Source: a virus
Lineage: Duplodnaviria; Caudoviricetes
IMG/VR virus record: IMGVR_UViG_3300044797_000084
Coordinates: 1-53,201 of that record
Direction: 5' to 3' (one strand)
Length of the DNA stretch: 53,201 nt
Part shown: positions 1,177 to 37,300 of the stretch, piece after piece
Layout: each line of letters opens with the position of its first letter
How positions within the stretch are numbered: position 1 is the stretch's first letter
Position numbers and translations under genes: made by a program
The notes under the pieces: generated by a model
The model's input: the letters and a program-made list of their open reading frames with translations, nothing else
Told to the model about the DNA's origin: nothing
Database searches by the model: none

Positions 1177-1204
1177 CTCGATACCTCCTACATAGGTGTT
1201 GAGC

Positions 1205-1236
1205 GGTGCCCGAGCGTTTTAGGCGCTGCGGGCACC
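1205..1236 (-). terminator. Stem-loop at the end of the early operon
   Basis: GGTGCCCGAGCG...CGCTGCGGGCACC inverted repeat. Confidence 0.45.
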
Positions 1237-1281
1237 TTTACTTCCCCCATCTTCGCCCACGCGGCGGATAGAACCGGCCGC

Positions 1282-1323
1282 TCATTGCGCTGGCTCCAGG
1301 GTGTCGAACAGGGACGGCGTCAC
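1282..1323 (-). CDS. 13-aa micro-ORF MTPSLFDTLEPAQ (copy 1)
   Basis: GTGA overlap with the MTase stop, ATGA overlap with the next ORF; duplicate at 4159-4200. Confidence 0.5.
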   Translation of the reverse strand: MTPSLFDTLEPAQ

Positions 1324-1334
1324 GCGAGGCTCTC
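1288..1334. repeat. 47-bp direct repeat, copy 1
   Basis: cgctggctccagggtgtcgaacagggacRgcgtcaYgcgagSctctc; also at 4165-4211 (3 mismatches). Confidence 0.95.
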
Positions 1335-15368: not shown

Positions 15369-15718
15369 GGCCGCGTCTGCTCGGCGACCCGTCGCTTGCA
15401 GTTGTAGGTCGGCGCGATGACCTCTGCGAATTCGTCAAGCGCCTGGCGCTGGGCGAGAACGCGCGCGCGCGTCAGCTGTCCCGCGGGGTTCCGGGCGATC
15501 AGGCGCTCGAGTCCGATGACCGCCTGGGCGTGACGTTCGTTGCCTTCGCGGCAGCTGCGCATGCTCGACGACACCCGCGACTGCTGGACTTCTGAAATGC
15601 GGTCGCCGTTCTCGACGAGCACCCAGACGGACAGCGCGATGATGGCTCCGACGAGGCCTCCGAGAACGATGGCGAGCGCGAGCCGCTCCCTGTGGTGCAG
15701 GCGTTTTATTGGCGTCAT
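15365..15718 (-). CDS. Single-TM lysis-region protein
   Basis: N-terminal TM, Cys pair, coiled coil. Confidence 0.7.
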   Translation of the reverse strand: MTPIKRLHHRERLALAIVLGGLVGAIIALSVWVLVENGDRISEVQQSRVSSSMRSCREGNERHAQAVIGLERLIARNPAGQLTRARVLAQRQALDEFAEVIAPTYNCKRRVAEQTRP

Positions 15719-16017
15719 GGGTGCACCCCCGCGAGCACCCCGACGATTGCGCCGACACTTCCCGTCGCGATCCCCGAGATGACCCCGACGATGATCAGCT
15801 TGTTGCGCTCCCTGCGCTCCTGGTGGGGGTGACCGCCGACCGCTTCGAGGTCTCTGTTGACATCGTCGAACTGGGTACGCAGGCCTTTGATCTGCTCAGC
15901 GAGCACGCCCACGTTTCCGAGGGTCTCGTGCAGCCTGCCGACCGATGCCCTCAGCTCACGGACCTCTACTTGGAGATCGTCGAGGCGCCCGTCGTTCCAG
16001 CGCTCAAGTGCGGTCAC
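15715..16017 (-). CDS. Coiled-coil plus C-terminal TM protein (holin accessory-like)
   Basis: Heptad pattern then TM; AGGAAGG RBS. Confidence 0.65.
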   Translation of the reverse strand: MTALERWNDGRLDDLQVEVRELRASVGRLHETLGNVGVLAEQIKGLRTQFDDVNRDLEAVGGHPHQERRERNKLIIVGVISGIATGSVGAIVGVLAGVHP

Positions 16018-16155
16018 GGTGGGCACCTTCCTGTGGGTTGTAGGATCGGGGCTGCGCGGCGAGCGGAGGACCACCGTACTTACCCAGAATGCGGGGCTGC
16101 CTCACGGTGGGAAACGACCAGGCAGGCGCCGCGCCCCCGATTAGACTCTTGGCCG

Positions 16156-17205
16156 ATGAGCGACACCGACCATCAGATCGTCTACTCGATCGAAAACGCG
16201 CCGCTGGTGCGCTTCGCCACGCTCACGCGCGATCTGCCCTACGTCGTGGAAGCGACCTGGGCATCCGACCCACTGGTGCCAGACGAGGCCGTCGCGTGCG
16301 TAGTCGAACACGACGGAGACACTCGGTACATCCTCGCACCTTCAAGCGGTGTGGCGATGGTCCGCTGTGCGGGTGGCAGCGTGTACGTGACCGGATGCGG
16401 CCAGACGGTGTCCGAGGCCGAGGCCCTGATCGCGCTCGTGCGCGAGCTTCAGCCACTCACCGAGCACGAGGACGGGATGGTGCCGGTCACGTTCTGGGCA
16501 TACGGGCCGAACGGCCCGTTCAGCACGCGCCGCAAGGTGGCAGCGCCGACGTGGGGCGAGATCGCCGACAACTACGCCACCGTCACGCTCGGACGGCTGG
16601 CAGCCCTGACTGATGGCTCGTTCGCCCCGAGCGTCGGCGGCCAGCTCCTGCTTTGGTCAGGCGACGCAGGCACCGGCAAGACGACCTTGCTCCGCGCGCT
16701 TGCCCGCGAGTGGGAGGACTGGTGCGAGCTGCACTACATCACCGACCCCGAGAGGTTCTTTGGCACCCAGGCGGACTACATGATCCAGGTGCTACTCGGC
16801 GGCGGGGGGAAGGACGGGCCGGGCAGCGAGCCGCCGCCGTGGCGGCTGCTGGTCCTTGAGGACGCGGGCGAGCTGCTGCGCGCCGACGCGGGCGAAGTCA
16901 CCGGCAAAGCACTGTCACGGATGCTGAACACGGTTGATGGCCTGATCGGCCAGGGCTTGCGCGTGCTGGTGCTCGTCACCACGAACGAGGAAGTCGGCAA
17001 GCTGCACCCGGCGGTCGCGCGCCCCGGCCGCTGCGCCGTCGAGGTCGAGTTCGAGGCGCTAGATCGTGAGGGAGCCGCAGCGTGGCGCGAGCAGCATGGC
17101 ATCGACTCCGCGACGGATGGCGGCGCAACGCTCGCCGAGCTGTACGCCGAGCTTGAAGGGTTCAACGGCGCACGACAGCGCCAGCCAGTCGGCTTCGCCG
17201 CGTAG
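16156..17205 (+). CDS. AAA+ ATPase (DUF5925/BCS1-like)
   Basis: GDAGTGKT, LLVLED, LN..DG, TTN, RPGRC, C-terminal VGF; TAGACT leaderless promoter. Confidence 0.85.
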   Translation: MSDTDHQIVYSIENAPLVRFATLTRDLPYVVEATWASDPLVPDEAVACVVEHDGDTRYILAPSSGVAMVRCAGGSVYVTGCGQTVSEAEALIALVRELQPLTEHEDGMVPVTFWAYGPNGPFSTRRKVAAPTWGEIADNYATVTLGRLAALTDGSFAPSVGGQLLLWSGDAGTGKTTLLRALAREWEDWCELHYITDPERFFGTQADYMIQVLLGGGGKDGPGSEPPPWRLLVLEDAGELLRADAGEVTGKALSRMLNTVDGLIGQGLRVLVLVTTNEEVGKLHPAVARPGRCAVEVEFEALDREGAAAWREQHGIDSATDGGATLAELYAELEGFNGARQRQPVGFAA

Positions 17206-17722: not shown

Positions 17723-17917
17723 TCAGGAACAGAATGGCAGGCGACGCAGCAGCGGCAGCACCGCAAGGGCGAACGCGAGCTTGAGCTGGCGCACCGCGTT
17801 CTCGAGCTCGATCTGCTGGTAGGCAAACGTGCGGTCGCCCCCGGGCTCTGCGGCGTAGGGGTTCTCGACTGGCCCCCAGCGCTGGCGTGCCTGCTCGTCG
17901 CTGATGAGTCGCAGCAT
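17723..17917 (-). CDS. Hypothetical protein
   Basis: TGATG overlap with the endolysin stop. Confidence 0.55.
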   Translation of the reverse strand: MLRLISDEQARQRWGPVENPYAAEPGGDRTFAYQQIELENAVRQLKLAFALAVLPLLRRLPFCS

Positions 17918-18975
17918 CAGGCGAGCGGCCGCCTCAGCTCGTGTTCGAGGGCGGCGATGGCCGCATCCACGGTGCGCCCCTGCCCTAGCCACACGTCGCA
18001 CGCGTGACGATACGCCTTCGTGTCGGGCGTGACGTGTTTGCCGCCGCCCGGTCGGCATTCGTGGCCGCTGTCCTTCGCATCGCCCTCAAGCACCCGCAGT
18101 AGCCCGCGTGTCTTGATGTCGCTGCGCAGCTCCTTCCTGAGCTTCCCGGGCGTGGGCGGCTTGGGCTTGGGCTTGGGTTTCGGAGGCTTCTGGTCGAGTT
18201 CGATCAGCCCGCGGTTCTGGTCAAGGTCAATCGTGACGCCAAAGCGCGAGCACGTCCCGCAGTATTGCCAGAGCACGATCGCCGACGCTGGGTAGCCCCC
18301 GAACGGCGACGGACCGCCGACGCCCCACTCGCTCGCCCACAGATAGCCCGCGCAGTGCCCACCGCCACCAGCCGCATACCCGCCGGGGTAGGAGAACACG
18401 CCGAAGATCGGCAGGCCAAGATCCTGCGCCTCGCTGGTGAACTCGCACGAGCGCCAGAACACGCCGGACACCTCGGCGTCGAACCAGTAGCCCAGTGGGG
18501 CGTGAGGCACGAGCTCGTGCGTGTACGCGGCCTCCGAGGCTCCTGAGATCCCGGGCTCGCCGAAGTCATAGACGCCGAACGGGATGCCGTGCTGCTCAGC
18601 GTCACGCTCCTGTTCTCGCAGTGAGGGCTCTTGGTTGAGCCCGTAGGCCGCCTGGATGACGACGCAGTGCAGGCCGACCGTCTGGGGATACCAGCCCTGC
18701 CACTGCGACCAGTCCGCGCACTGCGACTCCGTGGCCGTGAGCGGGGAGACGAGACCGAGCTTGCCTTCGGCCTGCATCGCCTGGTGGACGCATTCACCGG
18801 CAGAGGGAGGCACGCGGGTGACGCACTTCGGGCCACTCGGCTCCGAGAAGGTGAGTGTGCCCGCTGGCTTGGAGGGGTGCTGGCGCGGTGGGGTATGGGG
18901 CGACGCGCCAGAACAGCCAGCGAGCACGAGGGTTGCCGCCAAGGCGGCGAAGACAGCAGTGCGCATTTTCCTCAT
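17917..18975 (-). CDS. GH25-like muramidase/endolysin with lipoprotein signal
   Basis: MRKMR..LAGC lipobox; DWSQWQG, GVYDF, WFDAE, LWASEW, LWQY, IDLD; PK linker. Confidence 0.8.
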   Translation of the reverse strand: MRKMRTAVFAALAATLVLAGCSGASPHTPPRQHPSKPAGTLTFSEPSGPKCVTRVPPSAGECVHQAMQAEGKLGLVSPLTATESQCADWSQWQGWYPQTVGLHCVVIQAAYGLNQEPSLREQERDAEQHGIPFGVYDFGEPGISGASEAAYTHELVPHAPLGYWFDAEVSGVFWRSCEFTSEAQDLGLPIFGVFSYPGGYAAGGGGHCAGYLWASEWGVGGPSPFGGYPASAIVLWQYCGTCSRFGVTIDLDQNRGLIELDQKPPKPKPKPKPPTPGKLRKELRSDIKTRGLLRVLEGDAKDSGHECRPGGGKHVTPDTKAYRHACDVWLGQGRTVDAAIAALEHELRRPLA

Positions 18976-19166
18976 GAGCCGATCTCTCCCGCGTACGGAT
19001 TCGACTCGCCCGACGTGAAGGCGAAGAAGTCCTCGACGCCACGGCGCGTGTAGCCGAGCACGAACTCGCGCTCGGGATCGGTCAGCTCGAAGCTCTCGAT
19101 CGGCTCGCCGCCGAGGATGCGGTCTCCGATGTCGGCCAGCCTCTCCATGTCGGCGCGCAAGCTCAT
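18972..19166 (-). CDS. Hypothetical protein
   Basis: GAGG RBS; ATGA overlaps. Confidence 0.55.
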   Translation of the reverse strand: MSLRADMERLADIGDRILGGEPIESFELTDPEREFVLGYTRRGVEDFFAFTSGESNPYAGEIGS

Positions 19167-19378
19167 CGCTTCCTCCCCGGTAGCGGCTGCCCGCATCCCT
19201 GGCCGGATCGGCATTCCCGCTCGTCGCTTTCTCGCAGACCCCGGCAGACACTGGAGCTGACGCCGCCGCATTCCTCGTGTTCATGGATGACGTGGACGAG
19301 CGCGAAACAGCCGACCACGATGAGGTAGATGGAGACGGCGACGAGCGCCACGAGGGCGATGGCACGGTTGCGGGTCAC
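19163..19378 (-). CDS. Small TM protein with Cys-rich tail
   Basis: Hydrophobic N-terminus; coupled. Confidence 0.5.
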   Translation of the reverse strand: MTRNRAIALVALVAVSIYLIVVGCFALVHVIHEHEECGGVSSSVCRGLRESDERECRSGQGCGQPLPGRKR

Positions 19379-21075: not shown

Positions 21076-21948
21076 CTACGGCGGCGGTTCCCAGGCGTAG
21101 ATGGCGTCGAGGGCGTCGAGGTCGATCCCGATGCTCCCGATATTCGGGGGCATCTCAGAGAACTCGGTCAGAAGTTTCTGCCCCCAGAATATGCTGGTGC
21201 GAAGCCACTCCCGGACCAGCAGATGCACTTGGACCGCTGGCTCCGCGAAGAGGTGCGGTATCACCTCAATGTGGGGATTCGGCCCCTTTTTCCGGGCGCG
21301 AATAAACACAAGCTCTGTATCCACCTTCAAGGGACCCCGCTTGGACGGGACGTTTCGATCCGGCACAACGCAATCCCGACTATCGCTGATCTCGATGGCG
21401 GCGTGAATGGGGAGCGCCCAGACTGGCTCCATCGTCCGGTGCTTGTCGCTGGTGTTGACTTTTGCCAAGACCGACGTCCAGTACCACGCGCGTATCCCCC
21501 GAGCGTGTTTGTATGGCTGACATCGACGGACTCGTGCGATGTCTGCGCGCGTCGCACCGGGGAGCTTCGTGGGCAGCGATCCGTTGAAGCCCGCTCGGCT
21601 ATCCGAGATCGGGAAATAGATTTTCCGCTGCGCCTTCTTCGAGAGGGCGTCGGGGGGCGTTCGACCGCGCGTCACGATCGCCCAGGCGGTCTGGTCAAGC
21701 GCGCTGCGCAGGTTGTTCGCTATGTCGCCGATGAGCAGACCCCAGGTGGGCGGCATGGGATCGATGTCGGTGACGATCACGGAGAAGCCGTGGCGTTTTG
21801 GCTGGTATTCCGCCTCTACGGTGAAGGTGGGCTGACAGTCGGGGTCAGATGTAACGGCGTCGAGGTCAACTTTGAGCGTCTGAGCGTGGACTACAGCGCG
21901 CCCCCACTTGAGCCACGCGCTCTCGAACAGCGGATCGGGGTCGTCCAC
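21076..21948 (-). CDS. Accessory protein, possible HEPN-like fold
   Basis: IGD...NLRSALD, FPI and N..KHR motifs; leaderless TAGGCT-7-GTG. Confidence 0.65.
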   Translation of the reverse strand: MDDPDPLFESAWLKWGRAVVHAQTLKVDLDAVTSDPDCQPTFTVEAEYQPKRHGFSVIVTDIDPMPPTWGLLIGDIANNLRSALDQTAWAIVTRGRTPPDALSKKAQRKIYFPISDSRAGFNGSLPTKLPGATRADIARVRRCQPYKHARGIRAWYWTSVLAKVNTSDKHRTMEPVWALPIHAAIEISDSRDCVVPDRNVPSKRGPLKVDTELVFIRARKKGPNPHIEVIPHLFAEPAVQVHLLVREWLRTSIFWGQKLLTEFSEMPPNIGSIGIDLDALDAIYAWEPPP

Positions 21949-21967: not shown

Positions 21968-22378
21968 TCACGCAGCGAGCGCCAAGGATCGTCCCTGATT
22001 CAACGCCGAAGTCAACTGAGAAAGAATCGTGAGGTCGGCGTGAAGCCGCACTCGCTCGATCCGGCGCACGCGCAGCGGAGTCAAGCTCCATTCGTTCTTG
22101 AGCCTTCCGAAGCCACGCTCGACGGACGCGCGGCCACGGTACAGACCCTTCCATCGCAACGTCTCGCGCGGTATCAGCGTGTGGAGACGGTCGGCCTTTA
22201 CCCACTTCGATTTTGTGTCACATTCACCTGTCGGACAGCGCCACTTGGTTGCTTTGCGCTTGTGGTCCGCCCCGGCGAACCTCCACTCGCCATGCTCACA
22301 CGTCGGCGGCTTGTGCTCGCCGCGCTTGACGGCAGGTGTTTCGCGCAGCGGGATCACCGGGGAGATGACCGAGGTCAT
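21968..22378 (-). pseudogene. DDE transposase C-terminal fragment (IS5/IS1182-like)
   Basis: LY..R.SVER.FGRLK (YREK) motif; N-terminal catalytic part absent. Confidence 0.8.
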
Positions 22379-24906: not shown

Positions 24907-24988
24907 GGTGAGTCTCGCGAAGCAGCCGCCTGGCGACAGGCACAAGGCCATTTCCTGGGTCGTCGGGCGGCTGCTTGACGGGACTCAT

Positions 24989-25016
24989 CGGCGCCATAAC
25001 ATGCATTATCGCGCGT
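24989..25016. other. dif-like (Xer-type) site 2
   Basis: Reverse complement: ACGCGCGATAA-TGCATG-TTATGGCGCCG; 11-6-11 layout with ATAA/TTAT core. Confidence 0.5.
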
Positions 25017-25344
25017 TGCGAAAAGCGCGTGTTTGCAGGGGATTCTCGCGGTCGGTTTACATAGTCCTGGCGAACGGTCGTCCGCCCTGGACGCCGAAGC
25101 TCGCGGGCTCGCTCGCGTCCGAGTGCCGTTCCACATGTAAGGACGAGTTTCCGGCTTCGTCTTGTAGGATGCTCCGCCACACAGCGCCCCCGGCAGCGCC
25201 ACAGACGTCACCGGGGGCTCACACCAGGAGGTCAGTCCTGATGCGCAGTCGAGTCTACGCCCTCGTTCCAGCTACCGCAGCGCGCATGCGCGCCCCGGCG
25301 AGAAGGCGCCGACATGTTCTCGGCTGCTATGGCAGTATCCGCGC

Positions 25345-25599: not shown

Positions 25600-25630
25600 T
25601 AGTGTAGTTGCGCGGGCAACCGCGCAGGGT

Positions 25631-26107
25631 CTAGGCGTCGCCGAGCACCAGCCGGAGCTGGCCTACGAGCGCCTGCAACTCGCGTGGGTGCGTGAAGCAA
25701 TCGACGGGCAGCAGGATGCCAATCATGGGGTCCTCGGGGGCGATCTTCTTCGCCTGCTCGAGCAGCGTGTTGTACACCTCCGCGAGAGCCCCTATCTGCG
25801 GCACGCTGCTCTCTGCGAGCCTCCCGAGGTCCTCGTAGAGCTGGACTGCCTGGGCGCGCGGATCGGTCAGCGACGCCGTCGAACCTCCTGTATCGGCAGC
25901 GGCGCCTGCGCGCACCAGAAACCAGCCGAGTTCTCGAGCATTCGCGGCGACGTCACTCGGGTTCATGCCGTACCGGTTGATAACGAGCCCGGATCCGGCG
26001 TAGGTCGTCTTTGCGCGAGCGGGCTCGGGCTCGTCGGCCACAAGACCGGCGGGAACCGCCGCGCGTTGCTCCCAACTCATGTGGCGGCTGTCGTCGTCGG
26101 CTGACAT
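25631..26107 (-). CDS. 158-aa protein carrying a copy of the tape-measure C-terminal motif
   Basis: AGGAGG RBS; YAGSGLVINRYGMNPSDVAANARELGWFL vs TMP YAGSGLVVNQYGMNPEDAAANASELGWVL. Confidence 0.75.
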   Translation of the reverse strand: MSADDDSRHMSWEQRAAVPAGLVADEPEPARAKTTYAGSGLVINRYGMNPSDVAANARELGWFLVRAGAAADTGGSTASLTDPRAQAVQLYEDLGRLAESSVPQIGALAEVYNTLLEQAKKIAPEDPMIGILLPVDCFTHPRELQALVGQLRLVLGDA

Positions 26108-26145
26108 CGATGCCTCCTGTTGATCGAAAAGGAAAGGACTCTCAG

Positions 26146-26373
26146 ATGAACAAGCCTGGTCAAGCAAAACCGAAGCGTGCGCGCCGTCAATACGCCGCTT
26201 TCGTGCTCAAGGCGTGGACCAAAGAGACGCTAGCAATACGCATTTGCACGACACTCGACCCATACCCGGCTGACGCGATCGTCAGCATCACGAGCAACGT
26301 TGACTTTCAGTTCGGCTGGCCGTTTCGTCGCAACTGGGCTCTAATCATCGTGAGGCGCCCCGATGCGGAATAG
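26146..26373 (+). CDS. 75-aa hypothetical protein
   Basis: AGGAAAGGA RBS. Confidence 0.6.
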   Translation: MNKPGQAKPKRARRQYAAFVLKAWTKETLAIRICTTLDPYPADAIVSITSNVDFQFGWPFRRNWALIIVRRPDAE

Positions 26374-26403
26374 CGCTTCGCTCCACCAAAGAAAGGCCTC
26401 ACC

Positions 26404-26607
26404 ATGATGTTGTTCGCGCTGCTATTTCTGCTCGTGCTTACTTCAACCATCTGGGTCGGCTTCGATGCTGCTGGCCGTGACTGGACCGAGCACCGACATG
26501 GCCACAATGTTGTCGAGTGGGTGGTCGGATGCTTGCTGGTGTGGATCATCGTGTTCCCGATGTATGTTGCCACGCGCTCTCATGCACCACTCAAGAACCA
26601 GCGTTAG
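26404..26607 (+). CDS. Small 2-TM membrane protein
   Basis: IWV..DA...W....LLVWII.FP.Y pattern. Confidence 0.7.
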   Translation: MMLFALLFLLVLTSTIWVGFDAAGRDWTEHRHGHNVVEWVVGCLLVWIIVFPMYVATRSHAPLKNQR

Positions 26608-26674
26608 GACCCTGGCGAATAGCGACAACATCGCGGTCGTGGCTCAATAGGACTCCGCGAGGACCACTGAGCGG

Positions 26675-27796
26675 CTAGAGCTCGTAGTAGCAGACTCCCA
26701 CATTTGTCAGCGAGCCTTCCGTTACATTCAGTTTCCACGCCACGCCCGGTGGAATGATTGGTACGGATAGCGAGAATATCTGTTCGTTGGTACTAGGTTC
26801 CACTCTCAGAGATGCAACGCCTCCACTGCCGATTTTGATCGTTACCTCCACCCGTTCTGATCTGGCCGTCGTGAGGTTGAACACTGCGGCGACCGGACGG
26901 ATAGCGTTAGGCGTCTTGCCCGCGACGCCTTCGGCCTGCGTGTAGTTGTTTTGCAGGCCCCATGGTTCTGGACGCTGAGGTTCACCTGCCACGATAAGCC
27001 AGTTAAGCCCGTCGGAGATGAATTCAACGTGCTGGCGTACCGCGAGCGAGCAGCTAGTAACCCCTTGCAGGAAGTCGCCGAAAATCTCTTCGCCGTTGAC
27101 GCATTCCACCGTGACGGCCCCCCCGCCAGCAGCAGCCCCGACGCGCTGGGAGACGGCTCCTGCTGCGGCCGGGAGTTTCACCGTGATCGGCCCGGAGGAC
27201 TCGATTAGCTGGCCATATTGGGCGGTTACATTGCTAGCGGCGATTACGACAGCGAGTTGCACCAGGCTACCGAGCACACGGCTGGCCACGTTCCTGATGT
27301 CGGTGTTGGTGATGGTCGTGGCAGCAGCGGGCACGAGCACGTAGGCCAAGGTGATGCTGTTTTTCGGTGCGGCGGCGACCCCTTCAAGGTTGGTCAGGGT
27401 GGCGCCGGCTTTCGCGGTGCCTTCCTTGACTTCGATCTTGGCTTCGTTTTTTGAGCCTTCATAGCTTTCGTCGAAGACCGTGGCGACGATCCGTTCGATG
27501 CGCGGGTTAGACCCGTTGGCTGCGGCGAGCGTGAACGTGGCGGCAGCGGTGTTGCGGAAGTAGTAGCCCGATTGTGTGGCTGACACGTTGCCGGGGATGA
27601 TCGCCTCGCCTTGGGCGACTTCGATTTTCAGCCCGGACCCTTGGTAGGTGACCTGGAGGTCGGTCGCGGCGACCAGGCCGCCGAGCACCGAGCCGATCGT
27701 GGCTCCTCGGGCGAGCATGAAGTTGATCGCCCTTCTCGTTCGCTCGGCGGATTCGCCCGCCGAGTTATCTTGCAAGCCGAACGCTTCTTGCGTCAT
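26675..27796 (-). CDS. Minor tail/fibre-associated protein
   Basis: L.V..G.A.I.G...AA.GSNPRIERIVA.V.D...LAYVLVPA actinophage minor-tail motif; GAAGGGAG RBS. Confidence 0.8.
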   Translation of the reverse strand: MTQEAFGLQDNSAGESAERTRRAINFMLARGATIGSVLGGLVAATDLQVTYQGSGLKIEVAQGEAIIPGNVSATQSGYYFRNTAAATFTLAAANGSNPRIERIVATVFDESYEGSKNEAKIEVKEGTAKAGATLTNLEGVAAAPKNSITLAYVLVPAAATTITNTDIRNVASRVLGSLVQLAVVIAASNVTAQYGQLIESSGPITVKLPAAAGAVSQRVGAAAGGGAVTVECVNGEEIFGDFLQGVTSCSLAVRQHVEFISDGLNWLIVAGEPQRPEPWGLQNNYTQAEGVAGKTPNAIRPVAAVFNLTTARSERVEVTIKIGSGGVASLRVEPSTNEQIFSLSVPIIPPGVAWKLNVTEGSLTNVGVCYYEL

Positions 27797-28688: not shown

Positions 28689-28772
28689 TGTGCCGACCCC
28701 CCGGTGGGGGAGGGAGGCAGGTCTCCAGAACATGCATTATCGAGCGTTGACAGTTGCGCCACGAGCGGTCTC

Positions 28773-29321
28773 CTATTCCGTGAGGCTGAATGTGATGCCG
28801 TCAAACCCGTAGTAGTCGCCGGTCGAGAGGTTGCTGTTGGGCTGGCATTCGCCGGAACTGAGAACGATGAGCGATGGTGCGCTAGCGGTCGAGATCGGAG
28901 CGATCGGCATGAACCGGTTGAACGACGGCCGGTAGCCCACAGGGAGCGTGAAGATGGTGGTGTTGGCCGGGACTTCAGCAGTCGTTTTGATTGCGCCGGT
29001 GAACCGCACGTTGGCGCCCATCTCGCGTCGGACCGCCACTCCGCCTTCGATTTTCGCCGAGACGTTTTCCACACCGACCCACGGTCCGACCCCCGGCAGC
29101 TCAACCCACAAGCTGTCTACCAGCACCGCGATCCCGAAGCCCGTCAGGCCCGTGCTTTCGCCTTTGGGGGTCGATGCGAGGTTCCCGATGATCGCTCGGC
29201 AGACGCCTTCGCTATCGACGATGTATTCGGTCTGGCCTGCCTTGAGTGCTTGGACGTCGCCGGAGAGCTGGGCGAGCTTTTGACCGAGCCACTGGCCTGC
29301 GGGTTCTGCGTAGCCGGGCAT
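28773..29321 (-). CDS. Minor tail protein
   Basis: V.F.G.I.....IFTLPVGYRP...FDGITF C-terminal domain. Confidence 0.8.
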   Translation of the reverse strand: MPGYAEPAGQWLGQKLAQLSGDVQALKAGQTEYIVDSEGVCRAIIGNLASTPKGESTGLTGFGIAVLVDSLWVELPGVGPWVGVENVSAKIEGGVAVRREMGANVRFTGAIKTTAEVPANTTIFTLPVGYRPSFNRFMPIAPISTASAPSLIVLSSGECQPNSNLSTGDYYGFDGITFSLTE

Positions 29322-30796
29322 TAGATCGTCGGGTTCAGGGCTTGGAGAAGCGGGGGGCGACCGAGCGTTAGCTTGACCACGGCGTCGCCCTGGTCGGCTA
29401 CTTCGCAGCTCCAGGCGATGATGCGGAACTCCCGTTCAAGGCCCTGCGGGAATCTCGGGTCGTACACTTCGCCTGTGGGCGCCGTTTCGGGGATGAACAA
29501 CTTGATGTCGTCGCCGACGGTGAACGAGCCGAGCGGAAGGTTTGGGTCGTTTACACCGATCGTGATGGTGGGCGTGACCGGCGCGTAGCTGTAGATCGCT
29601 AGGTCTGAGAAGCCGATCTGTTCGAGCAGCCCCTCGATGTTCTGGGACTGGATGCTCGCCCGGGAGATGACGCGCTCCCACAGCGGGTAGCCCTGTTCCT
29701 GCGTGGCAGGGTTGAATTCGCTGACGCTGATTGCGCCGGAGCCTCCAAGCTCGTAGATTCGGTTGGCGGTCTGTGTGCCGTCCTCGGGGAATTCGTAGCC
29801 CCGTGCTGTGGTGACATCCACCATCAGCCCGTTTTGGGCGAACGTCCGGCCGCGTCTGGGGTAGCTGATGTTGATCGTGCCGACCGGCGGCGAGCCTGGG
29901 CCTTCGCTGTAGGCGACGTCGACCCCGAAGTCAAAGCCGACGCCCAACCCGAGCTGGGCGAGCTGGGAGACGATCGTGTCAACGGTCTGCATCGACGTGA
30001 ACGGGTAGCTGACCGCGATGTAGTCGCCCACCCCCGCGGCTGGTTCGGAGCCGGATGGCACTTGGCCGTTAAGCTTCAGTTCCAGGCCGCCAAGGAGATC
30101 TCCGTAGGGCTGCAGCGACCCGTCTGAGTAGCCGATCGCGTCCGCGATGATCTGGCAGGCGATCAGCGAGGCATCCCATGGGGTCTGTGTCCAGTAGGAC
30201 ATGGGGGAGCTGTCGCCGGTGATCCCTGAGTAGGGCGGGCTTGAGTAGTCGGTCGCCTGCACCCTGTTTTGAAAGTAGAACCAAGCCTCCGAGCAGGACA
30301 CTTCCAGCAGGCCCGTCGTGGACTGCAATGAGGCTTCGACCTTCCATTTGCGGGGCAGCACGATGCCTCCCCACTGCACCGACTGCAGATAGTCCACCAC
30401 GATCAACGTCCGGTTGGGCACCGTGCAGTTGAGCGGTTCAGTCGTCTGCACCCGCGGGTCACGCAAGTCGAGCGTGCTCTGAAACGTGCCGGGCGTGTTG
30501 AGCTGCTGGCCGAACGTCACACCCCGCAGCGGGAGCTGGCCCAGAAACCGGCCGGTCAACAGGTCATAGGCCAAGTAGCTGAACGGGTTGCCGTGGACAG
30601 CGACGCCGGTGGCGGCGACTTCCGAGACGGGTTCCGGGCTAGGTTCAGGTTCGGGCGCCAAGCCGGGCTGGCCGCCGCCGTAGTAGTAGCCGCCGTAGAG
30701 GGCCGCTCCGAATGGCGCCTGGTTGTATTCGCCGGCTCCGTCGACGGTGAAGTCGCCAACGATCAGGCCGTCGCCGACGACCGGCCCCGAGGGCAC
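29321..30796 (-). CDS. Baseplate hub/Tal-like minor tail protein
   Basis: YLAYDLLTG...LPL..V.F...LNTPG...WGGIV...TANR; position in the tail module. Confidence 0.8.
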   Translation of the reverse strand: MPSGPVVGDGLIVGDFTVDGAGEYNQAPFGAALYGGYYYGGGQPGLAPEPEPSPEPVSEVAATGVAVHGNPFSYLAYDLLTGRFLGQLPLRGVTFGQQLNTPGTFQSTLDLRDPRVQTTEPLNCTVPNRTLIVVDYLQSVQWGGIVLPRKWKVEASLQSTTGLLEVSCSEAWFYFQNRVQATDYSSPPYSGITGDSSPMSYWTQTPWDASLIACQIIADAIGYSDGSLQPYGDLLGGLELKLNGQVPSGSEPAAGVGDYIAVSYPFTSMQTVDTIVSQLAQLGLGVGFDFGVDVAYSEGPGSPPVGTINISYPRRGRTFAQNGLMVDVTTARGYEFPEDGTQTANRIYELGGSGAISVSEFNPATQEQGYPLWERVISRASIQSQNIEGLLEQIGFSDLAIYSYAPVTPTITIGVNDPNLPLGSFTVGDDIKLFIPETAPTGEVYDPRFPQGLEREFRIIAWSCEVADQGDAVVKLTLGRPPLLQALNPTI

Positions 30797-30799
30797 GGG

Positions 30800-31129
30800 C
30801 TAGCCTTTCTTGGGTTTGGCGCGTCTCTGAGCCCGGTTGGGCTGAGCGGCGTCCAGCTCGCCCTGCCATTTGCGCATCTCCTCCGGGAACGTCTTAGACA
30901 CGTAGGTCTCCCAGTTGTCGACGGCGATCCGCACCGCCGGATGCTCCACCTTCTCCAGTGTCTCGCCGTCGTCGTAGACGATCTCGGGCTGGATGAGGTA
31001 GTGGCTGGGCTGCCCCAGAGGCTGCTTGTGGTAGGTCTTCCAGTCCTTGGGGGCGACCGCGACCGGCTCGAACTGGGGTTGGACGTGCATCGTGACCAAA
31101 CGCACGGTCTTTTTGCGTGGTGTGGTCAT
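30800..31129 (-). CDS. Hypothetical protein
   Basis: Coupled; ends with an NRAQRR motif. Confidence 0.65.
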   Translation of the reverse strand: MTTPRKKTVRLVTMHVQPQFEPVAVAPKDWKTYHKQPLGQPSHYLIQPEIVYDDGETLEKVEHPAVRIAVDNWETYVSKTFPEEMRKWQGELDAAQPNRAQRRAKPKKG

Positions 31130-31455
31130 GACGCACCTGCGTCTGACGCCATGCGTTCGAGCCAGCCTTCTGTGCTGAGATCAATGAACTTGCGGAGCGC
31201 CGCATACATGTCCTCAGCTAGCGTCTTGTCTTCTAGCCGCACTCCCGCGATCTCAACGATGCCATGGCCGTCGATGACCCCCTCTAGGGCGCGCTCGCCG
31301 ATGCCGATGCAATACGACGCCGTAGACCCCGGACCGATATCTGGTCCCGCGTCCACGCCGATCAGGATGTTGTGGTGAGCCGCGCCATCGGACTCCACGT
31401 GCTGACCCGCTCGCAGCCCGATGAAGATGTTGTGCCCCCTGGCTTCTGTGCTCAT
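31126..31455 (-). CDS. Small protein with fibre-type N.x.IG repeats
   Basis: HNIFIG..AG, HNILIG..AG, CIGIG..AL; ATGA overlap with the fibre stop. Confidence 0.7.
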   Translation of the reverse strand: MSTEARGHNIFIGLRAGQHVESDGAAHHNILIGVDAGPDIGPGSTASYCIGIGERALEGVIDGHGIVEIAGVRLEDKTLAEDMYAALRKFIDLSTEGWLERMASDAGAS

Positions 31456-33455
31456 GCCGTCAGCCCGCTTTCGTGTGCCCATTTGGAGAACTTTTCGCAG
31501 AACTTCACGACCGCCAACGCCTGCGCTTCCGTTTCAAAACCATAAGGCGTGACTTTGGTGGCTTTCAGCGCCCCGGTTTCCAGGCTTTCGGCGACGAGCG
31601 TCGCGGGCGCTTTGCCATTGAACCCGAGCTTGGCGGCGTTGAGCGCAAGTTCCGCGTTGGGGAATTTACCGGTGATGAGCCCCGCCGCTTCTGAGTTGTG
31701 CGCCCCCATCGAGATGATCAGCCGGTTTTCGTAGGACGCTTCCGCCGTGCCGGTGCCGGCGAACGTGCCGATAAACACGTTTTTGGATTTCGTGTTGGCC
31801 TGCCCGGCGTTGCAGCCGATGAAGATGTTCTGGCTGTTAGCGCTGCCACCCGCTTCGTTGCCGAGGATCACATTCAACGCGCCTTCGCCCGTCGGCGTCT
31901 GCAGGGTGCTGACCCCGACCGCCACGTTGTCTGACCCCTGGGCGCCTTTGCCGGCGTAGGTCCCGACGAACACGTTGCGGCTCGTCGCGGTGCCCGCAAA
32001 CCCGGACTGCCAGCCAATCGCGACATTAGCGAACCCGGCTCTCAGTTCCGCGCAGGATTCATGGCCGATCGCCACGCAGTTGCTTGTTTCCGTACCGCCG
32101 CGCAACGCTTCGGTGCCGAGCGCGATGTTTTCTTCCCCGCGAGTGATGCCGAACCCGACCCGCTCGCCGATCAGGATGTTCCCACCCCCGGTGGTGAGGC
32201 TGTTCGCGGCGGTGCGGCCGATGATGATGTTGTCTTCGGTGGATTCCGAGACCTGCATTCTCGTGGTCGCGGGTTTCATGGTGCCCGCCAAGGTCACGAG
32301 TTTGGGCATTTCTGATTTAGCGAGGCCGGCTTCTTCCAGGGCTTTTTCTTCGGCGCTTGAGAACGTGCCGTTCGCTACCGCGATCACGTTGGTGTAGGAG
32401 ATCGGGTAGCCGCGTCCCTTGACGAGCTTGAATTTTGTGCCCGTGAACCCAGTCCAGCTCTGGCGAACTTCATGCGTGACGCCGACACACCAGTACAGCA
32501 CTTCGGTTTCCAGGCCGCACCCTGGCGTGACTTCGGTGAAGGTCACGTTCGGCACGTTGTCGAGGTGCCAGTTTTCTTCGTTCTGGCCGGAGGGCGTCGT
32601 GAATTCGGTTTTGCCGCTCGCGAGTTCCGCCCCAGGCGCAATAGGGCCAGCGATGATGCCGCTCAGGTGCTGCCCGGCGTTTTCGCCGATCAGGATGTGG
32701 CTGTTGTGTTTTTCCTGTTCGATGCGCGACAGGCCGAGCAGCGTTTCGCCTGCGCCCGGGCCGATCGCCATGCTTCCGCCCTGGAAGCTGTAGCGCAGAT
32801 GCACTTTGCTTTCGATTTCGCTTGAGCCGACCGTGCCGCCCGCGCTGTTGGTGTTCCATACCTGGGCGGTCGTCCCGACGATCACCCGCGTTTTGTTCTC
32901 GAAGTCCCAGATCGAGCCCTTGTATTCTTTGCCTTCCGCGACAGCGACCGTCACGCCCAACGGCAGTTCTTTCCCCGTTTCAAAGCCTGCCGGTCGCACC
33001 CACGCCCCGGACTTCACTTCCCATAGACCACGTTCTTTTTCGTTGGTCTGAAACGGCACAAGGACGATGTTCCCTTCGATGATCGCCACTTCGTCGGTCT
33101 GGCTTTTCGCGGGGATGCCGGAGAGCGTGGAGTTGACGGTCACCACGGCGACCGCGCCGGGTAGTTCGGCCTTTTTGACTGCTTCCTGCGCGAGCGTTTC
33201 CGCTTCAGCTTTGCTGAGCCCCGCGCCCGTGCTCCATTCCGCTGTCCCGTTTTCTTTCCACTTCAGATACTGCCCCGTGGAGCCGCCCGTCGGGACGAGC
33301 CGTTTAGAGACGGCCGTTGCTAGCTGGCTTTCGGTGATTGCCCCCGTGCCAAGCATCGTGTTGGCGATCGTTTCGAGGTCGTCGCCGTATTCGTTGAAGA
33401 GTTCGGCATTGGCTTTCGTGACGCCGTTGACGACGACAGGCTTGAGAAGCGTCAT
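31452..33455 (-). CDS. Tail fibre/adhesin with YadA-head-like beta-roll repeats
   Basis: ~12 N-x-x-I/V-G repeats at a 13-14 aa period; VLV..QT...ERGLW N-terminal domain; AGGAGG RBS. Confidence 0.8.
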   Translation of the reverse strand: MTLLKPVVVNGVTKANAELFNEYGDDLETIANTMLGTGAITESQLATAVSKRLVPTGGSTGQYLKWKENGTAEWSTGAGLSKAEAETLAQEAVKKAELPGAVAVVTVNSTLSGIPAKSQTDEVAIIEGNIVLVPFQTNEKERGLWEVKSGAWVRPAGFETGKELPLGVTVAVAEGKEYKGSIWDFENKTRVIVGTTAQVWNTNSAGGTVGSSEIESKVHLRYSFQGGSMAIGPGAGETLLGLSRIEQEKHNSHILIGENAGQHLSGIIAGPIAPGAELASGKTEFTTPSGQNEENWHLDNVPNVTFTEVTPGCGLETEVLYWCVGVTHEVRQSWTGFTGTKFKLVKGRGYPISYTNVIAVANGTFSSAEEKALEEAGLAKSEMPKLVTLAGTMKPATTRMQVSESTEDNIIIGRTAANSLTTGGGNILIGERVGFGITRGEENIALGTEALRGGTETSNCVAIGHESCAELRAGFANVAIGWQSGFAGTATSRNVFVGTYAGKGAQGSDNVAVGVSTLQTPTGEGALNVILGNEAGGSANSQNIFIGCNAGQANTKSKNVFIGTFAGTGTAEASYENRLIISMGAHNSEAAGLITGKFPNAELALNAAKLGFNGKAPATLVAESLETGALKATKVTPYGFETEAQALAVVKFCEKFSKWAHESGLTA

Positions 33456-33465
33456 GACCAACCTC

Positions 33466-34356
33466 CTAAATGATCCACGCGCTCGCGTATTCGCAAAACA
33501 AGGTGCCTTGGCTGGCGAGAAACTGGATCGTCGAGACGCCAGGGTTGAGCGTCCACCACTTCGAGCCGGAGACCAGCAGTCCGGTCCTGGTCGACCCGGC
33601 GGTGCTTCCCGACGAGTACAGGATCGCGGTGTGCATGTCGGTGTCGACCACGAGTTTTTCGCCGGCATTCAGCGTCAAGTTGAAGGCGAGCGTCGGCCCA
33701 CCAGTCGCGGTGGCGTTCTGGATCGCCGGGTTCACGCACGGCCCTTCGACCGTCAGAATCGGCCGCGTCTCAATGTTTCCGGCGTTGTTGACCGCCAGCG
33801 CACCCGTGTAGCCGCCGCCGCCCCATTTCAGATTCCATTTCAGCGGCCACGTAAAGCCGCCCACACTCGTCGGCGGTTTGACCGACAGCTGCTGCGTCGG
33901 CGCATACCAGCGGGGGTCAGTGCCGGCGAACAAGAACATCACCTTCGCCAGGTTCCCCAGCGTAAACGTGATGTCCACCGGCATCTGGCGCTTACGGACA
34001 CGCACTAGCGTCGCCAGCGTTCCCCACGTGGTGGTGTTCAGAAACAGCGGGTACTGGATCGTGCCGCCCGGCACTGTGGCGTCTGAGCATTCCTGCCACG
34101 CCGCGGTGAACGTCCCGGTCGCGTTGTGCAGGTCGGCTTTGACGATGATTTCGCGCTCGCCCAACACGTCCAGGCCAGCGAACGCCCCATGGTCTCGTGC
34201 CCTGCCTGCGTCTCCGCTGCGCACGGCGGGCATGTCGATGCCTTCGAGCCCCGTGAGCTCCAGGTTCGTGCCGGGTCCGAGGCTCAACGCGTTGTTGAAG
34301 TTCATCTGCCACGCCGAGAGCGTCGGGATCGTGGACCCGTAGGGCAAGAATGCCAT
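33466..34356 (-). CDS. Distal tail protein (Dit)
   Basis: Follows the TMP; G..MP.VR..D..R..HG, DPRWY, N.G.IETRP..T..GP..NP, W..L.PG. Confidence 0.9.
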   Translation of the reverse strand: MAFLPYGSTIPTLSAWQMNFNNALSLGPGTNLELTGLEGIDMPAVRSGDAGRARDHGAFAGLDVLGEREIIVKADLHNATGTFTAAWQECSDATVPGGTIQYPLFLNTTTWGTLATLVRVRKRQMPVDITFTLGNLAKVMFLFAGTDPRWYAPTQQLSVKPPTSVGGFTWPLKWNLKWGGGGYTGALAVNNAGNIETRPILTVEGPCVNPAIQNATATGGPTLAFNLTLNAGEKLVVDTDMHTAILYSSGSTAGSTRTGLLVSGSKWWTLNPGVSTIQFLASQGTLFCEYASAWII

Positions 34357-34371
34357 GTGACCTCCCGGCCT

Positions 34372-37300
34372 TTAGGGCAGCGGCATGAGCTGGCGCAGCA
34401 CCCACCCAAGCTCAGACGCGTTCGCTGCGGCGTCTTCCGGGTTCATCCCGTACTGGTTGACCACAAGCCCCGAGCCGGCGTACTGCACCTGCGAGCGCTC
34501 CTTGGTGACGTCGACTTCTTTTTCGAGCTTGGCCTCTTCCTGGGCGGCCGTGTCTTCCAGTTTCTGGAGTGCCAGGGCGGCCCCTTTGAGCGTCAGTTCC
34601 GATTCGCCCTTTGCCTTCGCCAACGTCTGTTCGGCATTCTTGATCGCTTCATTCCAGTGGTTGGTGACGTTTTCCATCGCCTTCGCGGCTTCCTCGCTCA
34701 TCGTGGCCGCGCCCTGTTCCACCTTCTTGAGATTGGCGGTGGCCGCCGCCTCCTGGTGTTCGGCTTCGTGTTCCGCGAAGCTCAGGCCAGAGGCGGCAAG
34801 GTTCTGTTGTTCCTTGCTCTTGTTCGCGGCGGCGAGCACCTTGAGCTCGGCGTTGCCGATCTTCTGGTCCTGGGCGAGCTGGACGTTGTCCACTTGTTCC
34901 TGCGCCGCAGCGATTTCGCCCGCAGCCTTGATTGCCACCGCGTCGGCGTGCGCCTGCGCCATAGCCTCTTGCGCGTCGGCCTGGGTTTTGTCGTCGTCGA
35001 CGAGTTGCTGATCCTGTGCGAGGACGCCCTGTTCCGTCGCAGCCAGTTCGTCCTCGGCGATCTTCGCCTGCTGGATCTGCTGGTCATAGCTCGCCTTCAT
35101 CTGGCCGAGCTGCACTTCCTCCTTCTGTGCGATCAGGTTCAGCCCATACAAGCCCCGCTCGCCGAGGATCGCGACTTCGATGTTGGTCTGGTCCTTGATT
35201 CCCGTGACGACTGCGTTCGACGAGTCGGCCATCACCTTGCTCTGCGCTTCGATCGACTGCGCCAACGCAGCGAAGCTGTCGGACATCGACTGGGTGGCAT
35301 CCCCGATCGCTGTGGCAGCTGCCTTCATCGCGTCAGTCTGCTGTGCCTGTTCGGCCTTGACGATGTTCAACTGGTCTGTCGCGGTGTGTTCGGCCTGGGT
35401 GGTGCGGTCCTTTTCCTCGGTCGCCTGGATCTTCAACGATTCGCCGAGCTTCGTCGTCTCGGTTGCGACCATCTCCTCGGCGAGCGTGGCGAGCGCCTGC
35501 TTGTGAGCGGCCTCTAGTTTGGAGGCAAGCTCCTCGAGCTTCTTCTGGTGCGTCGCGTTCAGTTCGCTGACGAGCTTCGACTCCTGCTTGCCGGCGACAG
35601 ACCCTTGCGCGCTCTTACCGAGCGCTGCGATCAGGCTGCTCATCGACCCGCCGCCCGCCGTCACGGCTTCGACCATCCCGCCGATAGCCGACGGGCGTGT
35701 CGTTTTCTGAGCGATCGAGCCGGGAATGCCCTCATGCACTGTCGCCGGCCCTAGCGCCCTGGTCGAGACCCCTAGGGCTTTCTCCATTGCGGCCGGCGTT
35801 GAGTTCTGGATCTCGGCTTCATATTTTTTGAGTAGTGATTCGCCGCCGGTGGTGATTTTTTCGATATGCCGTTTGAGTTCTTCGCCTGCTTTTTTCGCCG
35901 CCTCTTCAAGCTTCTCTTTCGCTTTTTCTGCGGCTTTTTCGAGCTTCTCCCCTGCTTTTTCTGCGGCCTTTTCCTGCTTCTCTTTCGCTTTTTCCTGCGC
36001 CGCAGTAGGGGGTTCCGCAGTGCCCTTGCCGTTCTGCTGGGTCTTTGCAAGCGCTTCCGCTGCGGCCTGTTCGCGGCGTGATTGCTGATCGGTTGTAGCG
36101 GTTTCCCCCGGCTGCGATCCTGCCGGCTGCTCGTAGTCTTTCATGATGAGGTTGGCCGCTTCGGTGGGCGACTTGGTCTTCTTCAGCGCAGCGACGAGGC
36201 TTGGTGACAGGTGTTCCAACACCTGCTGCGACTGCTGCGTGACGCCGCCCGTGCCAAGCCCGGGGTAGCCGGACTGCTGATACAGGCCGCCACCGGGCGT
36301 GCCCGGAACGAGGCTCGACTCTGCTGCGGCGTTGCCGACAAACCCGGCCGCCGCAGTAGCGGAGAAGCCCTTGCTCTCGAAGAACCGCATGATCTGCGCT
36401 TCGACGCTGCCGCCCTTGCTCGTGGCGCCTTCGGAGAAGTTTTCGGCTGCTTCGCGTTTGCTGATGTTCTGGTTGACGCCGGGTTCGGTCTTCGAGTAGC
36501 GGGGTGCCTTTGCTTCTTCTGCGACCGTCCTAAGTTTTTCGATCTCAGGAATACTGCCCGTGAGTTCGCCGATCGTTTCGTCGTACGCCCGGATGATCTT
36601 GTTTAGGTCATTGATAATGGCGTTGCCGACGGTCTTTGTGACCGATTCCATCGCTGTCATCACGGTCGACCAGTGCTGCTCAAGCTCTAGCGCCGCGAGA
36701 CCGAGAATCCCGAGGACTGCACCGATGCCGGTGGCTCCCATCGCAGCATCTACCCCGACGGCTGTCTCGTCTGCGCTCTCGACGATCGCCGCGTTGGCGG
36801 TCTCGACCTCGCCTGCTGCGGCTGTGGCTGCGTCGGACATGCTGCCGTAGGCGCCGGCCATCGCCTCGGTCTCGGTCGTCGTCGTCGCTGCGGCTGTCGC
36901 GACGGCGTCGTCCTCGATGGCGAACTTGCCGACGATCGTCGAGACGGCGCTCGTGACCCCGGACGCGAGGGTCTGCATCCCGCTCCACATTTTCTGTAGG
37001 CCGCCGTAGAACGCGACGGCCTTCTGCGCCGCGAACGCTCCGACCGCCGCACTGAGCACCCCGGCGACGGTCAAGCCGAGCGCCTCAGCCGCGACCTTGT
37101 TCTTTTCAAACCACTGGATCACTTCGCCCGTGGCCTTCCCGGCTGCCTGGAGCTTGGGGATCAGGAAGAACCCGAGCCGGTCCGCGTCCGCGGAGATGCT
37201 CGCCTTAAGTTGGTCCATCTGGAAGGACAGGTTTTCGGTACGTTTCTGCCAGTCCGAGCCGAAGTTCGAGCCGCCCTGCGAGACATCTTTGACCTTGTCC

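Follow-up and report, generated by a model that had tools for sequence, protein, structure and literature searches.

We analyzed the gene for a small protein, P0001 (158 aa), in the IMG/VR virus record IMGVR_UViG_3300044797_000084. The window is this whole record (G000), a linear sequence of 53.2 kb that is about 75% complete, has a GC content of 65% and carries most of its genes on the minus strand. The data showed that P0001 is a fusion of a fragment from the end of the tape measure protein (TMP) with an orphan gene encoding an 82-aa helical bundle. The fusion is real, is not due to chance and is of an unusual kind: it arose by read-through and keeps a peptide of a structural protein within an accessory gene. 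The coordinates of the gene, its segments and its neighbors are given in Table 1.

First, the match between P0001 and the TMP end was examined. The TMP gene encodes, at 34396-34482 on the minus strand, the peptide YAGSGLVVNQYGMNPEDAAANASELGWVL, which is followed by seven residues (RQLMPLP) and the stop codon. The initial annotation had claimed that the peptide encoded at 25916-26002 is identical to this motif in 23 of 29 residues and that the matching TMP residues end 7 aa before the TMP stop codon, and translation confirmed both claims. A recount also gave different codons for 11 of the 23 identical residues, as annotated. At the DNA level 65 of 87 nt were identical, and the method of Nei and Gojobori gave 1.16 synonymous (dS) and 0.16 nonsynonymous (dN) substitutions per site, so that the dN/dS ratio proposed as a check on the motif came to about 0.14 against the TMP. 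BLASTP of P0001 against the 1447-aa TMP found 24 identities in 34 positions (E 5e-15), the matching part being residues 31-64 of P0001, and tblastn of the N-terminal 82 aa found nothing in the window besides its own gene and the TMP end (E 1e-13), the next best match having an E value of 0.07. Chance cannot account for a match of this strength, which is also old. Beyond the motif, P0001 had no match to the TMP families PF10145 (PhageMin_Tail) and phrog_28 in Pfam and PHROGs, and it has no long coiled coil or lysozyme domain. The idea that the motif serves as a silent cassette recombining with the TMP gene was considered and rejected, because the reading frame is intact, the ribosome-binding site is strong and only those 65 nt are shared.

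The anatomy of P0001 was then compared with that of stand-alone genes for the 82-aa domain. Aligned with the stand-alone genes, the linker of P0001 contains a relic AGGAGG (25884-25889) in register with their ribosome-binding sites, and their start codons TTG and ATG are replaced by GCG and CTG. Hence what was once a 5' untranslated region is now translated as the linker, and P0001 can be made only in its long form. The AGGAGG site before the long form, already noted in the annotation, was found 5 nt from the ATG. An AlphaFold2 (AF2) model of the C-terminal domain contained four helices with a mean predicted local distance difference test score (pLDDT) of 84; the structure model and the comparison with the TMP upheld the earlier statement that this part is helical and unrelated to the TMP. 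P0001 is acidic (pI 4.7) and soluble, its maximum Kyte-Doolittle value over 19 residues is 0.77, and it has no membrane segment or signal peptide, so it would be expected to act in the cytoplasm.

Homologue searches recovered 4 proteins, 9 metagenome loci and 2 genome loci; among the metagenome loci, L010 and L011 are the sequence of the complete phage G001 again and L006 repeats L005. The tblastn E values for the family ranged from 3e-19 to 4e-27 in the metagenome scan and were 6e-25 and 5e-23 in the genome scan. The domain alone (about 80 residues) was present in seven loci (L004, L005/L006, L007, L008, L009, L012 and L017) and in protein P0005. In L004, L005, L007, L008 and L017, AGGAGG or GGAGG is followed after about 10 nt by TTG-xxx-ATG and an 82-aa product. 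Alignment of 11 sequences, P0001 included, gave 22 invariant and 15 nearly invariant columns, and P0001 fits the block ..QLY.DLG.LAE....G..LA.VYNTLLEQAK..P.D....L.P......HPR..QAL.GQL.LVLG. Over its C-terminal 76 residues P0001 shared 47-61% identity with the other 10 members and had the same four predicted helices. In bacterial chromosomes (Solirubrobacterales) the stand-alone gene was found in mobile-element settings. In L017 it lies between a gene for an XRE regulator, preceded by an integrase gene and an 85-aa open reading frame (ORF), and a DDE transposase gene; in L005 it directly follows an IS110 transposase gene, and in L007 and L008 it adjoins IS1595-like and IS-like genes. A 108-aa ORF on contig 36 of G006 (L031, 1477-1803, plus strand) was a distant relative of the domain (E 5.6e-5) that shares ..ALIEQAK..AP.DP.., so the family is wider than its close members. 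In G001, protein P0006 starts with a ribosome-binding site and first codons like those of P0001 and has a shorter extension without the motif. This extension was rejected as a mimic of a protein of its own phage, since the best tblastn match in G001 had an E value of 0.18. The TMP candidate of G001 has no motif, and G001 matched neither the window TMP nor PF10145.

The family was also compared with databases of known proteins. P0001 and its domain matched no family in Pfam, PHROGs or PADLOC (2023 release for P0001), and matches in NCBIfam were at noise level only (E at least 0.04). A sequence profile of the domain had no matches in the PDB, tblastn against 50,697 phage records gave no match for P0001 or for the adjoining 75-aa ORF, and Foldseek against the PDB and BFVD found nothing at an E value of 0.001 or below, the best matches being generic helical bundles. 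Among these, the proteasome activator Bpa (TM score 0.62, probability 0.60, E 2.8) was not accepted as a relative. The docking motif of Bpa is C-terminal, and P0001 does not have it. A search of the ESM Atlas with P0006 gave feature scores of 0.78 or less and, as best structural match, a cluster named only 'hypothetical protein'. No published name was found for the 82-aa family, which is defined here. By pure inference, the domain might be a scaffold or an oligomerising handle to which varied N-terminal additions are joined.

Three fusion members are known: P0001, P0003 (166 aa) and P0004 (168 aa). They have the same build, and all carry the motif. P0003 and P0004 are metagenomic and were compared as proteins, together with a 237-nt P0003-like piece from run X3. 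Another 11 TMPs or TMP fragments end with the motif, and with the window TMP included (n = 12), 13 of the 29 columns were invariant. P0001 keeps all 13 of these columns (Y-A-G-S-G-L-..-N-..-G-.-N-..-D-....-A-...-G-W-.-L), and its 6 differences from the TMP consensus are all in variable columns (P = 0.017), as are the 3 differences of P0004. P0003 differs at 7 positions. One of them (Y to D) is in an invariant column and belongs to the second of two copies of a 7-residue (21-nt) stretch that is duplicated within the motif; the first copy retains Y, and the same duplication was seen independently in the X3 contig. Because the TMP-invariant positions are kept (in P0003, in the frame with the tyrosine) and substitutions are otherwise confined to TMP-variable columns, a simple relic is unlikely. 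The initial annotation had named loss or decay of the motif among homologues as the mark of a relic; P0003 and P0004 keep the motif without decay, but most homologues of the gene do not have it. More distant versions of the motif were present in the viral records G003 and G004 and in the prophages G092 and G200.

In the most diverged pair, P0001 and P0004, 26 of 29 residues of the motif were identical, compared with 14 of 35 in the N-terminal extension, 5 of 18 in the linker and 37 of 76 in the domain. The binomial probability of at least 26 identities in 29 at the rate of the domain was 4e-6. These comparisons suggest that the motif peptide is under selection within the small-protein lineage, with the same residue constraints as in TMPs. 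Arginine at motif position 23 and phenylalanine at position 28 were found in all three small proteins and in none of the 12 TMPs, which points to a specialised copy; these two residues, along with a synonymous divergence from the resident TMP that has reached saturation, argue against repeated gene conversion. P0001 and P0003 were identical in 34 of 35 residues of the N-terminal extension (about 97% DNA identity) and in 23 of 29 residues of the motif, which looks like a recombination boundary with fairly fast change at TMP-variable positions. A P0003-like gene was also found in an independent peat sample (run X3 contig, compared with window positions 25908-26144). Its DNA identity to the window fell sharply along the gene, from about 97% in the N-terminal extension to about 85% in the motif, after which the sequences could not be aligned, and this fall suggests recombination within the gene.

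The same comparisons bear on an explanation without mimicry, in which the activity resides in the 82-aa domain and the TMP peptide is an appendage of the fusion, either tolerated or structural. We consider this explanation improbable. In its favor, the apparent conservation could stem from having only three related sequences or from the motif folding against the domain, and the domain does occur without any extension (seven stand-alone loci and P0005) or with an unrelated one (P0006). The six replacements in the motif between P0001 and P0003, the duplication in P0003 and the rarity of the family agree with it as well. However, in the most diverged pair no other segment is as well conserved as the motif, P0001 and P0004 retain all TMP-invariant positions while P0003 has lost only the tyrosine in the duplicate, and the loss of the internal starts has made the long form obligatory in P0001. 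In addition, the AF2 model leaves the motif unpacked against the domain.

The distribution of the gene was investigated in related phages and in bacterial genomes. Around the gene, the window is colinear with its closest relative, phage G002 (94% complete). Compared with the window, G002 has a hub-like protein of 86% identity and a distal tail protein (Dit) of 66-67% identity. There the zinc-ribbon-like ORF ends directly at the ribosome-binding site and ATG of P0001, which are retained, and the body of the gene is absent, so the gene is not needed for this tail type. The P0001 gene is thus dispensable. Profiles of the family and the motif detected only the TMP copy in G002, G003 and G004. Among the 401 genomes of the order of G005, three had a match, G005 itself to the 82-aa gene and the other two, G092 and G200, to TMP ends, so that the domain was present in one of the genomes searched and the fusion in none. 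A scan of IMG/VR with the motif pattern, from which the record of the window itself was possibly excluded, found three loci, all of them TMPs. A protein search for short carriers of the TMP end found one 100-aa TMP fragment (P0017); it missed P0001 and P0004 and was hence not exhaustive. A patchy, dispensable distribution of this sort is typical of accessory conflict genes.

We tentatively propose that P0001 is the first known copy of the hub-docking end of a phage's own TMP used as bait, either a decoy or a dominant-negative cap, and that the 82-aa domain serves as a scaffold for varied baits (none, the P0006 type or the TMP type), which would make P0001 a modular peptide-display conflict protein; taken as a whole, this proposal is still rather doubtful. 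That P0001 acts as a functional mimic of the TMP end in one way or the other is a real possibility, somewhat short of an even chance, in which the decoy and the cap, each taken alone, are unlikely. A TMP fragment consisting of the last 35 or so residues minus the final L-R-x-x-x-P-x tail was joined to the 82-aa helical-bundle gene, and translation came to run across the leader of this orphan gene, its ribosome-binding site included. Soluble P0001 in the cytoplasm would then show the C-terminal peptide of the TMP on a small helical scaffold and might compete with the TMP for whatever binds this peptide. Among the ligands, we slightly favor a factor of the host or of a prophage that inhibits or senses the TMP by its C terminus; P0001 would then be a decoy made late in infection, similar in logic to anti-Tab. 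The other candidate ligand is the baseplate hub, and P0001 would then cap tail tips, with an outcome like that of Tab.

For the hub, the accessible text on mycobacteriophage Douge (PMC13033339) describes a trimeric TMP that contacts the baseplate hub extensively, with a figure panel on the contacts of the C terminus. Residues 31-64 of P0001 are homologous to the corresponding end of its own TMP and of the 11 others, which would match the hub-docking segment as described there for Douge; P0001, at 158 aa against 1447 aa, is without the last 7 residues of the TMP. A hub-like protein of phrog_1885 was 64-86% identical in four viral records with the motif and was also found in prophage G092. It was thus present in five of six motif-bearing phages (the window, G002, G003, G004 and G092, not G200) and was not found in G001, which is without the motif. 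By analogy with Douge, the phrog_1885 protein is likely the docking partner of the TMP end.

If P0001 acts on this hub as an inhibitor, a protein made from a prophage or early in infection would fill the TMP docking site on the hubs of related phages that superinfect or co-infect the cell, so that their tails could not initiate and particles without tails would be released. This form of the model is unlikely by our estimate. It agrees with the binding of the TMP C terminus to the hub in Douge, according to the accessible text (PMC13033339), and with the conservation of the hub family in motif-bearing phages. Furthermore, the phage group is probably temperate, as judged from the tyrosine integrase of G002, and prophage-encoded blockers of tail assembly exist, as the accessible texts of two reports describe (PMC10884400, PMC11364771). 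The derived residues R23 and F28 could make P0001 a non-productive binder, and by hand count its motif was slightly closer to that of a foreign TMP (P0015, 25 of 29) than to that of its own TMP (23 of 29). On the other hand, the gene is co-oriented with the late genes. On the late strand it comes last, behind the gene for the tail fibre, with an opposite-strand island of two genes intervening. No sigma-70-like promoter site was found upstream of P0001 on its own strand, with a consensus that may not fit the host, and the 95 nt after the fibre gene contained no terminator-like fold (z 0.03 against shuffles). If P0001 were made together with its own TMP, it would risk poisoning its own tails, and no antidote is evident. 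The copy also does without the conserved terminal tail of the TMP. Late orientation and the absence of an upstream terminator fit a sponge or decoy slightly better than a blocker expressed in lysogens, if weakly, and with the risk of self-poisoning, the lost tail and the patchy accessory distribution they put the decoy slightly before the cap.

Several observations weigh against mimicry of either kind. The closest relative phage is without precisely this gene, and none of the five other phages or prophages with the motif has a second copy of it, so TMPs of this kind are not regularly accompanied by P0001. The mimic reading in the initial annotation was thus supported in part, by the preservation of the motif in fusion homologues. 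The mimic and its own TMP were seen together in one genome only. Most family members are without the motif, as noted above for the seven stand-alone loci and P0005, and P0006 has a different extension. Between P0001 and P0003 the 6 replacements in 29 residues stand against about 4 synonymous changes listed, which indicates that constraint on the motif is not tight. The terminal tail L-R/T-x-x-x-P-x was present in 10 of the 12 TMPs and in the TMPs of G003 and G004, whereas P0001, P0003 and P0004 continue with V-R-A... and about 90 further residues; with this tail missing from the copy, hub binding may have been lost. In the AF2 model the motif region had a pLDDT below 50 and was not docked. PADLOC had no model above noise for any of the neighboring ORFs, no candidate for a TMP-directed inhibitor emerged, and we know of no TMP-directed defence in this host group.

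The position of the gene at the end of the late structural strand also fits a part in the phage's own tail. P0001 would dock transiently on the hub as a helper, for instance to keep the initiator complex in readiness, or ride in the tail tip and deliver the 82-aa domain with the DNA; the motif derives from a TMP segment that is located in the tip according to the accessible text on Douge (PMC13033339). However, G002 has the same hub without the gene, the three TMP ends fill the trimeric hub of Douge and leave no obvious free site in the structure as described there (PMC13033339), and the domain also occurs outside phages, beside transposases and an XRE regulator. We regard such a role as very improbable. 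Whatever probability these explanations leave belongs to something not yet thought of.

P0001 was then compared with known systems. In the Tab/anti-Tab pair of Pseudomonas phage JBD26, anti-Tab is a protein of the late operon that binds Tab, and Tab blocks the tail assembly of phages whose TMP is sensitive in its C-terminal region, according to the accessible text of the report (PMC10884400). The pair is thus a precedent for conflict at this end of the TMP. As far as this text goes, the pair resembles the present case in consisting of small orphan proteins (Tab has 83 aa, the stand-alone domain about 82 aa), in being encoded by dispensable moron-type genes of temperate siphophages and, if P0001 is a decoy made late, in having a late-operon counter-protein that acts by binding (PMC10884400). 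No homology to the 82-aa family profile was found for Tab (gp31; hhalign probability 0.2%, E 0.35) or anti-Tab (gp30; 0.1%, E 0.73). The Tab gene lies between terminase genes, whereas the P0001 gene follows the tail fibre gene and has no promoter-like site on its strand; anti-Tab is unlike its own TMP (best E 2.9), whereas P0001 carries a literal copy of a TMP peptide; and the host phyla differ. Tai/Ati is likewise described, in the accessible text, as a tail-assembly blocker of prophages and mobile elements with a late-expressed partner for self-immunity (PMC11364771). Tai targets the central tail fibre (J protein) and not the TMP, and the description, with this other target and no mention of mimicry, sets it apart from P0001 (PMC11364771). 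The accessible texts on Tab/anti-Tab (PMC10884400) and Tai/Ati (PMC11364771) describe sequence mimicry for neither pair. Avs18 senses a central segment of the TMP, as far as its description is accessible, and no stand-alone mimic of a TMP end was described in the accessible main texts of the literature searched. P0001 thus appears closest in logic to the tail-assembly conflict systems and would be a member of none.

Exclusion proteins that act on TMP-mediated DNA entry, such as HK97 gp15, are membrane proteins encoded by moron-type genes, whereas P0001 has no hydrophobic segment. Conflicts over tail assembly (Tab/anti-Tab, Tai/Ati) are recent discoveries, and P0001 would offer a handle on them: a bait peptide of 29 residues with known invariant and lineage-specific positions, and a near-isogenic relative without the gene. 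If P0001 does bind as proposed, it would represent a new way past defences that block assembly, or a new way to block tails, and would show one route by which such genes originate, in which read-through fuses a piece of a structural gene to an orphan domain that is itself mobile. If it does not, the gene would still be a clean case of domains fused de novo, in which the old ribosome-binding site survives as a relic.

Table 1. Features of the P0001 gene, its surroundings and the tail module in the window
Feature	Position	Strand	Remarks
P0001 gene, 158 aa + stop	25631-26107	-	codon-position GC 0.71/0.47/0.77, typical of coding sequence in the window
AGGAGG ribosome-binding site	26113-26118	-	5 nt before the P0001 ATG; site and start kept in G001 and G002
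N-terminal extension, aa 1-35	26003-26107	-	acidic, Pro/Ala-rich; pLDDT <50
Copy of TMP C-terminal motif, aa 36-64	25916-26002	-	encodes YAGSGLVINRYGMNPSDVAANARELGWFL
Linker, aa 65-82	25862-25915	-	former 5' untranslated region of the stand-alone 82-aa gene (DNA alignment)
Orphan four-helix domain, aa 83-158	25634-25861	-	homologous to stand-alone genes of about 82 aa
Zinc-ribbon-like ORF, 84 aa	25345-25599	+	convergent with P0001
GC-rich hairpin, 7-bp stem, 4-nt loop	25609-25626		between the convergent stops of P0001 and the zinc-ribbon-like ORF
Divergent spacer, 38 bp	26108-26145		contains both ribosome-binding sites; conserved in G001, G002 and the X3 contig
75-aa ORF	26146-26373	+	body 96% identical in DNA to a 72-aa ORF of G002
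67-aa ORF, two hydrophobic segments	26404-26607	+	not found in G002
Fibre-like last gene of tail module	26675-27796		
Minor tail protein, phrog_1885, candidate baseplate hub/Tal	29321-30796	-	conserved core from about 30598
Fibre-like protein	31452-33455		tail module (Pfam/PHROGs)
Dit (distal tail protein)	33466-34356	-	Pfam/PHROGs and relatives
TMP, 1447 aa	34372-38715	-	PhageMin_Tail and Phage_lysozyme2 domains; C-terminal motif at 34396-34482

The neighborhood of the gene was also analyzed. In the window, G001 and X3 a gene of the P0001 family diverges from a variable plus-strand island across a spacer of 37-38 bp. The annotation had the 38-bp length of the spacer in the window (26108-26145) right, but the two genes flanking it are head-to-head and divergent, not back-to-back. 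The second gene of the island had been described as having two transmembrane segments, and the 67-aa ORF at 26404-26607 indeed contained strongly hydrophobic stretches (maximum Kyte-Doolittle value over 19 residues, 2.33). In G001, G002 and X3 the island starts with a signal-peptide-like ORF, of which the window retains only the first three codons (MNK). Comparison with L025 4555-5216 showed that the 75-aa ORF is the product of this deletion: it joins the MNK of the 148-aa signal-peptide-like gene to the body of the next ORF of G002 (72 aa), and about 400 bp are missing from the window at this point relative to G002. The possibility that the 75-aa ORF is an inhibitor with P0001 as its antidote was weakened, as G002 keeps the ORF (96% identity) without P0001. 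In G001 the island (L001 8681-9795, minus strand, corresponding to G001 1152-2266, plus strand) encodes two secreted-looking proteins of 208 and 162 aa that are unrelated to the island of the window. GC content fell to 55-57% over about 26050-27000, where the island and the terminal part of the fibre gene lie, from the 65% of the whole window. On the other side of P0001, the hairpin at 25609-25626 had a folding energy of -19.7 kcal/mol (z -1.9), with 4 of 200 shuffles folding as well, and has no U tract; it is a possible two-way terminator by this prediction. Orientation and predicted folds suggest, weakly, that P0001 is the last gene of the late transcript.

G000 is probably a siphophage of temperate type with a host among the Solirubrobacterales. 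The host group was deduced from the cellular genomes with relatives of the P0001 gene, all of which are metagenome-assembled genomes of Solirubrobacterales, and no integrase or resolvase family was found in the part of the phage that the window covers (75% complete). Gene order between the TMP and the hub varied among relatives: the order in the window is TMP, Dit, fibre, p118, p109, hub; that in G002 is TMP, fibre, p109, Dit, hub; and that in G003 and G004 is TMP, Dit, one ORF, hub. Dit therefore has no fixed place (L018, L019 and L020 compared with window 29321-34356). Residues 772-890 of the TMP form a tail-lysozyme domain. Far from the tail genes, a 482-aa ORF (17917-19365, minus strand) had a weak match to GH25 lysozymes and 77% identity to a G001 protein, and is a likely endolysin judging from these matches.

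Three further observations concern the early region and other parts of the window. A 498-aa ORF on the minority strand (15709-17205, plus strand) contains an AAA+ ATPase domain, with matches to DUF5925 and weak matches to NACHT/nSTAND; PADLOC gave only a weak TRIP13 match, and the ORF could be a phage-borne defence-type NTPase. A 136-aa ORF matched the end of a DDE transposase (PF01609; entry 21968-22378 and 21076-21948, both minus strand), which suggests a remnant of an insertion sequence within the early region. This region is colinear yet shorter in G001 and G002. Finally, a 20-nt element, ACATGCATTATCG[C/A]GCGTTG, was found twice in the window (24999-25018 and 28730-28749, plus strand), a count that none of 100 shuffles reached. 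It also occurs twice in G001 (at about 428 and 3413), at syntenic places, and a stretch of G002 (L025, about 3062-3216) was 79% identical in DNA to window 24909-25063, a region that includes the first copy. The element might serve the phage as a promoter or operator, perhaps of leaderless genes. At the second copy (window 28733; G001 3414) the ATG of the listed minus-strand ORF begins inside a palindromic ATGCAT, and the first copies had the same placement of the ATG as judged by eye. A promoter-like site, TTGACG-16-TAACAT (24975-25002, plus strand), precedes the first copy in the window.

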